A stretch of 56,361 nucleotides of DNA from Thermodesulfobacteriota bacterium (GTDB lineage: Bacteria > Desulfobacterota > Desulfobacteria > Desulfobacterales > C00003060), in the NCBI GenBank assembly GCA_034189385.1, contig JAXHVD010000027.1, forward strand, positions 1 through 56,361. The letters run 5' to 3'. Every line of letters begins with the position of its first letter. Position 1 is the stretch's first letter. A program made the position numbers. Below, piece by piece: positions 3,001 through 6,000 of this stretch.

Positions 3001-6000
3001 AGCACAATGCTGTGAGAACATGGTGGAGATGTGCGACAGTTCGTTGAACAACTTGTGTTGCGGCGCTGGTGGCGGTGCCTGGGCAATGCCTTATTCGGAG
3101 GAGCGTTTGGCTTACGGCAAGATGAAGGCAGATCAGATCAAGAAGAGCGGTGCAGAACTGGTTATCGCACCGTGCCACAATTGCCGTGACCAGATCATGA
3201 AGGCTCTCCCAAAGGAGTTTGACATGGGCAACTACCATGAGACCCTTTACATCTGGGAACTGGTAGCTGAGTCATTACAGTTCGAGCCATGGAGCGATGC
3301 AGAGATAGAAAAGGCCCATGCTGAGCGGGATGCACAGTTCGAAAGGGACGGGGTTGAGTTAGAAGAAGAGGAATGGGGATAGACGAGTCAGTAACCAGAC
3401 CGATGGCTGCGTAATCTTTAGAACCTGGTGACGCTTTGCAGGGCGCCACCAGGTTTTTTTTGCTAGGGGCCACATGTAGCGGGAGTTCTGGGCTCTTCCT
3501 TTGAGGTAAAGGGCAAGAATCCTTTATTCAGGTGCCAAGGCCGTAGGATGTTTTGCTTAGTCGGGCACGGCGAGCGTCTTTAACACAGCCAAGAGGCAGA
3601 ACATGGCACCAAGATAGTGGCAGACTCAAGGGGGCCAAAAGGAGCCTTGAAACACCCAGTCAATGCAAGCAGCCACTTACGGATTGACAAAGAGAAAGAC
3701 AGAGGACTGGAGAGGATGGGACTATGCTGAAATGTGTTGGATGTGCTATTGCTGTTGCGTTACTCACCATAGGGGTGTGCCAAGCTGCTCCGTGAGGTTG
3801 CAGTCCTTCCTCAGGCGGAGGAAGCGCTATTATCAGGGGGGGAGGCCTGTTGAGTTCACGCCTCTTTGACCCCACACAAACTCGTGGGATCATTGGAAAG
3901 GGAGACCTGGCTCTGGGCTCATATTACCTCGGAGGTGACGATCATGACACTGTCTCATTTCTCGTGGCAGGTCTGACCGATCGCTTAGAGGTCGCGGTGA
4001 ATCAGTATTATCAGGATTCGGACTGGACGGCATCAGCTAGGTTCGGAGTCATGAAAGAGGGTGAACGGTGGTGGCATCCTTCCTTGGTGGTGGGGGCACA
4101 CGATATTGGTAGGCCTGAGGACGCTGCCATCTCTCTGACAGGCTTCAAGTATCTTGAAGTTCCCTACCTTGAAGGACTTTGGGTCCATGCCGGCATCTTC
4201 ACGGAGACCGAAAAGGACGGTGATACAAGAGGGTTTGGTGGGGTTTCCACACCATTTGCGAAGAAGTTTGATTTTTCCCTCCTCCATGACGGGGCTGACC
4301 TCCATGCTATTTTAGGGGCGAATTATAAGGGCCTGAGGATATTTGTGATGGCCTATGAAATGGACCATTTTGGGGTGGGGCTCTCCTACCAATTTGATTT
4401 CTTCGATCCAAAGTGATGTGGCAAGGCGTTGATGGTAGGCACGAAATCAGCAGTTTTGTCACGTCAGTCTCTCGTATTTCTCACCGAGGTGCTGTTGTTC
4501 AACGCCACGAGCAGCGGCCCCATTAGCTCAAAAGGCACATGTAAGAGCATCTAAGCAGCTAAGATACCATTACAATGGACCGTTGGCACAGACCTGGGCA
4601 CTGAGGCAGCCACAGAGTCATTGCCTACAAGAAAAGGTCTTCAGCCGTTGTGAAAACAATACGGAGTGGGCACTGCTGTCCTATCTGTGCGCGGTGAATC
4701 TGGCAGGACGATGGACTGAAAAAGGTCTGAAGAGGCCTCTGACTTGCAAAACCCGATATTTTTCTTGACAAGGACCCCGCGGATATGTAGGGTGCGTGCT
4801 GCTTGTTTGGTAAGTACTTAAAAATCCTAGCAGAAATGGGGGTGATTGTCACAACTTGCTGAAATCATGGGTAGTTATTTCGGTTAGGATCAACCTGTTA
4901 ATCTTATATAATAAGGAGTCAAGATGATGTTTTTGAAAAGGGGAGTACTCTCTCTAGTGGCAATATGCATCGTGGCTATTGCCGGAATCTCCTGGGCGAG
5001 CCCCCCGGTCCCGCCACCGCCAGAGGGTTTCGGGATCGTAACGACCACCGATGTGATAGTCACCGGAGATTTCACGCACGAGTCGTCTCTTAACTGGACC
5101 TACATGCATGATACGGAGGAGAACAACGGTGGGGGAAGCACCCTTGCCCATCCGGGGGTGAACCAGGTCCTTGCCGCGGGCGGCCGTGCAGGCCAAATCC
5201 GCTACGCCAACGAAGTGGATGCCATTGATGGTTATGTGGAGTTCAAGAACAACTTCGAGGCCAGGTCTGACGAAGAACCCAATCTGAAGGTGAGCAAGGA
5301 TTTCGGTTACGTTGCCTCACCGTCAAGTCTCATTGCAACGGCCGAGGATGAAGAGCGCGTTGGTTTAAGCATCGTGGCCAATGGAGATGATGAAGGGCTG
5401 GGTGACATGCCTTCTCTGTGTCCTTGGGCCTCAGGGTCGGAGATACCGGCCACAAATGAGTTCATCGCTGCTGGGAGTTCGACTAGAACAACCAGTGCCA
5501 TGGTATCTCACACCGATACCGACGTGACGTCAACGGGCCCACCGTCGCTCAATCACAGCATTTCTGCCGTAGGTGAAGGTACTGTGACGGCAAGCATGAT
5601 CGTGAGGTTGATGGAAGGAGGGGACGTGCATGTGCCTGGCGAGGCTGCACCCAATCTCGTCAGTAAAAACACCTATGAGGAGAGGACTTCGGCTTCCGGT
5701 GTCATTGAGAAGTTTGAGAAAAGCATGCACTATCATTCTACGATCCCTCAATATCAAATGCCTGAGCCGTGGTACGAGATTCAGTAGTCTAAAGCGTCAC
5801 CATTTTATGAAAGCAAGGGGGCGGGAGTGTCCGCCCCCTTTTTTTGTGACAGAGCCAGCCTTTTGTCCTTGCCTTTGATCACCTGTGTTCTGTAAAAATG
5901 CTTTCCATGCCATGAAAGCGTGGACGCAAGATCCCAGAAAATGCTCAAGGGAGGATTGTCATGACCACGGCCGATATAGGGCATTATGCCGGCAAGCACG

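Follow-up and report, generated by a model that had tools for sequence, protein, structure and literature searches.

The subunits of the archaeal cell sheath make up the SH/MspA family, whose core is described in the parts of PMC10593813 drawn on here as 12 strands arranged in six beta-arches and two six-stranded sheets. According to the sections of a 2024 survey used here (PMC11576556), structural homologues of SH were not found in Bacteria and a conserved gene context of archaeal SH was not found; no assembly factors were named there. A literature search covering few subscription papers yielded neither a bacterial SH protein nor a link between SH and csgG, and the words "sheath" and "amyloid" do not occur in the accessible part of PMC10553843. 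Among bacterial systems, the holdfast anchor HfaB provides a precedent for a CsgG-like channel exporting non-curlin surface polymer proteins, with an unrelated cargo. The Fap amyloid system also has a dedicated channel that exports a non-curlin surface polymer protein.

Results

The SH gene of the window

The window is the whole stretch of 56,361 nucleotides that was analysed, contig C20 of a Thermodesulfobacteriota genome (G000) of 4.13 Mb in 64 contigs, which is 90% complete and 4% contaminated. A search of G000 for a 16S gene gave none; its placement in Thermodesulfobacteriota comes from the names of homologues, and its order counts over 300 genomes. At 4927..5787 on the forward strand it contains an open reading frame for a secreted all-beta protein of 286 amino acids of the SH family, with a second in-frame ATG at 4924. 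The following features were recognised:

4913..4918, forward strand: Shine-Dalgarno-like sequence AAGGAG, from the sequence
4927..5787, forward strand: SH-family gene, 286 amino acids, stand-alone, with about 510 nucleotides free upstream and a terminator downstream
4927..4998, forward strand: Sec-type signal peptide, residues 1-24, with basic and hydrophobic parts and S-W-A, judged by eye and from an AlphaFold helix at 2-19
5032..5112, forward strand: first beta-arch, residues 36-62; G47 invariant, D42 in 96 of 98 rows
5419..5421, forward strand: Cys165, the sole mature cysteine, within the LCPW...PATNE loop
5662..5736, forward strand: last beta-arch, residues 246-270; G258 invariant
5737..5784, forward strand: C-terminal tail HSTIPQYQMPEPWYEIQ, pLDDT low from residue 276
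5815..5840, forward strand: intrinsic-terminator-like hairpin of 11 pairs followed by a T run, from the sequence
48116..48220, forward strand: 3' remnant of the SH family, last strand and tail only (tblastn E 5.7e-4; profile E 2.5e-5)

The mature subunit comprises 262 amino acids and is strongly acidic; E. coli CsgA is smaller. Cys165 was invariant in all 98 homologue rows, and in a further set it was present in 46 of 50 rows. As described before, repeated searches with the window protein gave no Pfam or NCBIfam family above the cut-off and no match in a PDB sequence search. The ESM Atlas gave no usable match, and phage records and viral contigs were searched for the family without a match. 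The frames on either side, a barrel-like protein upstream (3850-4416) and a 144-aa Cys-containing protein downstream (5961-6395), were likewise without a Pfam match. The PEPWYxLQ tail of SH also ends two frames outside the family, one at C11:58736-59200 (forward strand) and one at C6:4122-4631 (reverse strand); the latter frame encodes a signal peptide and gave no match in Pfam. This tail is possibly a portable targeting or docking motif.

Copies in the genome

A preliminary description had counted six full copies and, on contig C2, half-size ones. Searches by tblastn and with a profile recovered the five full paralogues as open frames with exactly the same coordinates, 49-66% identical to the window protein (tblastn E 1e-82 to 1e-114), together with two half-size genes:

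C6:8606-9475, reverse strand: SH paralogue
C18:23954-24835, forward strand: SH paralogue, the operon copy
C34:87148-88011, reverse strand: SH paralogue
C49:1402-2295, forward strand: SH paralogue
C64:110789-111712, forward strand: SH paralogue
C2:104604-105084: half-size SH protein (match 104607-105002, E 4e-34), C-terminal arches only, own signal peptide
C2:7237-7710: half-size SH protein (match 7375-7578, E 1.4e-4), C-terminal arches only, own signal peptide

The half-size proteins could be caps or nucleators of polymers. The six full proteins have 286-307 amino acids, all with leaders of 24-27 residues, and five of the genes are followed by hairpins similar to the terminator-like one in the window. 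They are dispersed over six contigs and sit among bacterial housekeeping genes (uvrBC, cysS, glyA, fabG, lon). Their GC content of 51-55% is host-like, whereas that of the ANME-1 loci is 44-45%. Five full copies, the window's included, stand alone, and one lies in a csgG operon. A whole SH gene was contained in 17 of 23 short contigs, compared with 5.7 expected, a count affected by the bias of cluster representatives towards whole proteins.

Homology to archaeal sheath proteins

Alignment A1 was made from 98 of the 120 close homologues listed, partial and some near-identical rows being omitted. Only 11 of the 120 were taxon-named, and all 11 were Thermodesulfobacteriota. The A1 profile gave 237 matches in 1.84 billion representative proteins, and the 150 matches listed graded into proteins clustered with NYT20910.1 of the Methanomicrobiales, the one of ten clusters of archaeal-type matches for which a taxon was obtained. 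Alignment A2 was made from 23 archaeal-type matches, and its profile retrieved 323 proteins. Among the best 120 of these, 17 were taxon-named, all as Methanomicrobiales (12 Methanoregulaceae, 4 Methanomicrobiales, 1 Methanolinea). Comparison of A1 with A2 by hhalign gave 99.86% (E 3.6e-31, 273 columns), while 20 column shuffles reached 0.39% at most and reversed sequences scored near zero. Judged by these profiles, the bacterial proteins are SH family members over their whole length, which independently reproduces the homology claimed in the preliminary description.

By eye, the A2 consensus LCPFAS..IPxFCNIV..GS agreed with positions 151-173 of the published Methanolinea_sheath HMM. E143, which is invariant, and C165 matched E132 and C151 of the Methanospirillum_sheath HMM, also by eye; these are the two strongest columns within its positions 130-155. 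Searches directed at M. hungatei MspA gave no Methanospirillum-named rows among the best 120 matches of each, and the tie to M. hungatei MspA itself is indirect, through the published HMM consensus compared by eye.

The csgG operon

The operon at C18:21180-27655 has the order csgG, accA, SH, accB, a gene for an acidic secreted protein, a csgF-like gene and a gene for an Hsp20 with a signal peptide. Its end genes are:

C18:21180-22244: csgG, first operon gene
C18:27083-27655: signal-peptide Hsp20, last operon gene; also at L122:6441-7106

Export is unusual for a small heat-shock protein, and this Hsp20 could maintain subunits in an unfolded state. The gene order was identical in G000 and G016; a further genome with the contig numbers and coordinates of G016 was counted once with it. 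In G038 the order was SH, accB, accA, acidic protein, csgF-like, csgG and SH, without Hsp20. In G243, of another class, the contig end bears the first part of an SH gene, followed by accA, acidic protein, csgF-like and csgG; a search of this genome for accB gave no match. The operon was thus found in three genomes besides G000, two further lineages included, and the full operon was repeated on two metagenome contigs (L068 and L077). Among the 37 genomes of the genus, the two that carry SH, G000 and G016, were also the only ones with a strong match to this CsgG; four genomes gave weak partial matches and 31 none.

The operon CsgG matched PF03783 (E 7e-20), which is an unspecific model with 26% correct matches according to the part of PMC3521004 used here. 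It also matched the CsgG model (E 9.5e-11) and, weakly, HfaB (E 8.5e-4). Alignment with residues 51-260 of E. coli CsgG (E 2e-10) showed that the lipobox, the constriction loop region and both membrane hairpins are kept. The score of 41.7 bits was below the 505-bit equivalog cut-off of NCBIfam, and the protein shares 25-29% identity with the phylum's own curli CsgG. The csgF-like protein was without a match in Pfam, NCBIfam and PDB. Against 13 true CsgFs of the phylum it gave 93.5% over 52 columns in hhalign, with a score of 46 compared with 35 or less in 40 shuffles; this match covers only the signal peptide and about 30 residues. Neither curlin, for which the E. coli control was positive, nor CsgE was found in the four operon genomes, which are incomplete (89-93%, G038 apart), so that the missing curlin is not a proven absence. 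The acidic operon gene was rejected as a CsgE, with 6% against an 11-row alignment of 10 CsgE-like sequences and one stray regulator. A second CsgG-domain lipoprotein at C45:51154-51882 adjoins a Ser/Thr kinase and a TolC-like/efflux cluster; it was discarded as an SH-linked gene, having a separate context and barely resembling curli CsgG.

Profile comparison of accB with SH gave 98.1% with a mixed alignment and 96.9% with bacterial rows only. The accB model consisted of strands throughout (pLDDT 80.6) and had no convincing fold match in PDB or BFVD. By these comparisons accB is a divergent SH homologue. For accA the values were 94.5% with the mixed alignment, 74% with bacterial rows alone and 66% against an ANME-1 candidate (shuffles below 2%), and accA is a probable SH homologue.

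Three further observations concern genes of this kind. A secreted protein at C14:44902-47373 (L145:2903-5374, reverse strand), whose gene contains an assembly gap, resembles archaeal sheath adhesins: its N-terminal domain is accA-like (E 1.7e-38), and Ig-like domains (PF25788, E 3.9e-10) come after it. Directly upstream of the G038 SH gene, L014:5353-5736 encodes a small secreted protein with PPTLG(C/H)(V/I)WTP repeats. At L120:2414-3209 (G243) two short N runs split the SH gene, probably as an assembly artefact.

ANME-1 relatives

The preliminary description named Methanomicrobiales as the archaeal relatives, but ANME-1 proteins proved nearer, with 32-38% identity to the window protein. These closer kin, with their shared SH-accB gene order, and the csgG/csgF-like operon are new compared with the preliminary description. 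A metagenome scan for SH gave 67 loci. Loci L095-L097 and L099 have the order SH, accB and a second SH, and L101 has SH and accB; an archaeal winged-helix regulator gene and an S-layer-type gene adjoin the ANME-1 SH loci. Methanophagales names were attached to the cluster of P0134 and to those of three genes neighbouring SH at L095 (accB = C4B56_07260); the three SH clusters were themselves without a taxon name. The ANME-1 SH proteins share the SPPVPPP start, the CxW and PxTNE motifs and the Pro-rich tail with the bacterial ones, and ANME-1 and bacterial accB gave 99.9% in profile comparison. In the part of PMC11576556 used here, Table S2 gives two SH proteins of G60ANME1, of 286 aa (locus 00256) and 298 aa (locus 00258), one gene apart. 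This pair fits the SH-accB-SH arrangement and its lengths, from which we infer identity with the L095-type loci.

Predicted fold and polymerisation

AlphaFold2 with A1 gave a model of the window protein with pLDDT 84.7 and 10 strand elements (residues 36-46, 49-62, 86-100, 102-113, 120-130, 138-151, 176-188, 191-201, 207-230 and 246-270), in line with the ten-strand all-beta fold proposed previously. DSSP assigned eight single and two double-length strands, which can be read as 12 strands in 6 arches. Searches of PDB and BFVD with the model gave no convincing fold match and brought up no SH structure, although a missing match in these databases excludes nothing; the top rows were barrels and pore-formers with TM values of 0.16 or less, and the best Z was 6.8 (rmsd 4.4 over 100 residues).

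Prediction with three copies gave a score of 0.77 (median of three runs), at least 84% contact agreement between runs and a partner pLDDT of at least 69. Of 30 solved homo-pairs, 20 attain the mark set for this score, as does 1 of 23 single chains; these counts are rough here, and the calibration jobs differ from this one. The earlier score of 0.78 for a head-to-tail polymer was thereby reproduced, but the controls were less clean than stated: the three gave 0.51, 0.00 and 0.00, the best not being 0.01. In the model, residues 244-273 pair antiparallel with residues 33-60 of the next copy through both arch halves, and the contacts 260-45, 250-55 and 269-37 form one antiparallel register. The model supports binding by head-to-tail joining of the last arch to the first arch of the next copy. 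K262 contacts D42 in the model, with D in 96 of 98 rows and K in 66. For M. hungatei rings a K363-D43 pair has been proposed for curvature, and the bacterial K262-D42 pair may be its equivalent.

Distribution and history

SH carriers were found in 2 of the 37 genomes of the genus and family, the number reported before. The sample of the order contained one carrier among 301 genomes and that of the phylum two among 401; the class of G243 had 1 in 7 and the order of G038 1 in 151. In a quick tree of 95 rows, 15 bacterial rows lay within a 51-row group including 36 rows without host assignment, apart from ANME-1 and Methanomicrobiales. For a careful tree a 51-row subset was used, from which most host-unassigned rows were dropped, with five accB rows as the outgroup. 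In this tree the archaeal rows and their host-unassigned kin formed one branch (98/96) inside a bacteria-containing grade; keeping the bacterial side together was not rejected (p-AU 0.30), and the outgroup was long. The trees indicate that the SH family is old and patchy in bacteria, and imply at least one cross-domain transfer of SH together with accB. Further SH subfamilies were seen at L098, where the neighbours look bacterial, and at L102, L106, L117, L114 and L116; SH copies are in tandem at the host-unassigned loci L106 and L117.

Discussion

The finding of SH proteins in bacteria is real and stronger than the preliminary description had put it. SH most likely works like an archaeal sheath subunit delivered via a curli-type channel, and it is fairly probable that SH subunits leave through CsgG and polymerise on the bacterial surface. 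With its signal peptide SH would cross the inner membrane by Sec, and the C18 operon suggests that unfolded SH would pass the outer membrane via the curli-type CsgG and its CsgF-like partner. Outside, SH is predicted to fold into two six-strand sheets joined by six beta-arches, and joining of the last arch to the first arch would build uninterrupted beta rings or ribbons at the surface of the cell, in which the conserved cysteine could serve for cross-links. The operon copy and accB, and probably accA, may serve as minor or nucleating subunits, and the five stand-alone copies, the window's included, would supply the bulk subunit in trans. Against export by CsgG is the fact that only one of the six full copies lies in the operon and the window copy lies outside it; the size of the subunit, which exceeds that of E. 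coli CsgA, also speaks against it.

Since there are six SH genes, one of them in a csgG operon, a bacterial coat of the archaeal type is possible. A tubular archaeal-type sheath around the cells is rather doubtful. A wider scenario is put forward as tentatively: some Desulfobacterota would have a tubular amyloid sheath outside the outer membrane with SH exported via a repurposed curli channel, and the SH-accB cassette would have passed from one to the other of bacteria and ANME-1, in whichever direction. The sheath type of ANME-1 and Methanomicrobiales may even have originated in bacteria, as the accB-rooted tree places the archaeal rows within the bacteria-containing diversity, although a root between both sides is not rejected.

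Nearest archaeal kin of the bacterial proteins (32-38%) are those of ANME-1, which live with sulfate reducers; the part of PMC11576556 used here predicts hetero-assembly of divergent SH proteins, and the fusion of accA-like and Ig-like domains at C14:44902-47373 is like archaeal sheath adhesins. The exported proteins could mainly dock onto, or assemble jointly with, the sheath of neighbouring ANME-1 or methanogens, as proposed for viral SH-like proteins, and form no coat of their own. This is improbable, since a bulk structural role is suggested by the predicted homo-polymer and by six full copies that carry terminators of their own, and since the bacterial part of the tree, being of great age and diversity, does not track one archaeal partner; nothing found here points to G000 as a syntrophic partner. 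It is also improbable, if anything slightly more so, that the SH polymer or oligomer is periplasmic or exported otherwise and csgG is a mere neighbour with another substrate. Such a role of csgG would agree with five of six SH copies being unlinked to it, with the absent CsgE match and with the weak CsgF match. However, the linkage is kept across three lineages despite differing gene order, SH and csgG co-occur exactly within the genus, and curlin was not found in the four genomes.

That SH is a monomeric outer-membrane barrel or pore-former, functionally unrelated to sheaths, is very unlikely. Barrels and pore-formers top the fold search, but these matches are weak (TM 0.16 or less; best Z 6.8), whole-length homologues exist in archaea, which are without an outer membrane, and the predicted edges pair between subunits. 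The idea that archaeal DNA came into a bacterial genome through misassembly or misbinning is largely refuted and hardly credible. Although SH is rare (2/37, 1/301, 2/401) and the MAG has 4% contamination, the copies are on six contigs with bacterial housekeeping neighbours and host-like GC, the operon includes the outer-membrane csgG and recurs in independent genomes and metagenome contigs, and all 11 taxon-named close homologues among the 120 listed are Thermodesulfobacteriota.

If SH does leave through CsgG, it is a natural non-curlin cargo of this channel. The sheath has been held to be restricted to archaea, and a bacterial branch with a curli-type exporter would, if true, be an envelope polymer shared across domains. 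The SH-csgG operon is short and defined and might be expressed in E. coli, so that sheath nucleation, curvature, minor subunits and chaperones would be testable in a tractable host. The survey, in the sections used here, names no assembly factors (PMC11576556), and the operon offers specific candidates in accB, accA, the acidic secreted protein and the Hsp20 with its signal peptide.

Comparison with known systems

The archaeal SH/MspA proteins (M. hungatei WP_011449234.1 and the Methanolinea and ANME-1 families; sections used here of PMC6242892, PMC10593813 and PMC11576556) and the bacterial ones have in common a length of 150-350 amino acids, a signal peptide, a conserved cysteine, several copies per genome and sequence homology over the whole length. 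The bacterial strand pattern, as read from the model, is compatible with the two six-stranded sheets of the archaeal core, and the last-arch-to-first-arch polymer is shared as a prediction. Archaeal SH proteins are also characterised by very high expression and by a tubular sheath of stacked hoops surrounding the cells. The archaeal genes form one tandem cluster, whereas the G000 copies are scattered. The bacterial proteins are without the large helical cap and have a Pro-rich PEPWY tail, and the second cysteine of archaeal LCPF...PAFCN is replaced in bacterial LCPW...PATNE. The bacterial host has an outer membrane and its SH is linked to csgG and a csgF-like gene, while a conserved context was absent in the archaeal survey. 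In the ANME-1 SH1-accB-SH2 loci (L095-L097, L099; L101), accB lies directly 3' of SH as in bacteria, but these contigs are without csgG or csgF, and their SH proteins form a clade of their own in the tree.

Measured against the defining subunits of curli (CsgA/B, CsgEFG; type VIII secretion), the SH operon is no curli system: curlin repeats and a CsgE match are lacking in the four incomplete genomes, and the cargo is a non-repetitive antiparallel beta-arch protein. It shares with curli the CsgG lipoprotein channel, the CsgF-like N-terminus, the csgF-csgG order of G038 and G243, and a cargo that is secreted, beta-rich and polymer-forming, the SH polymer being a predicted one.
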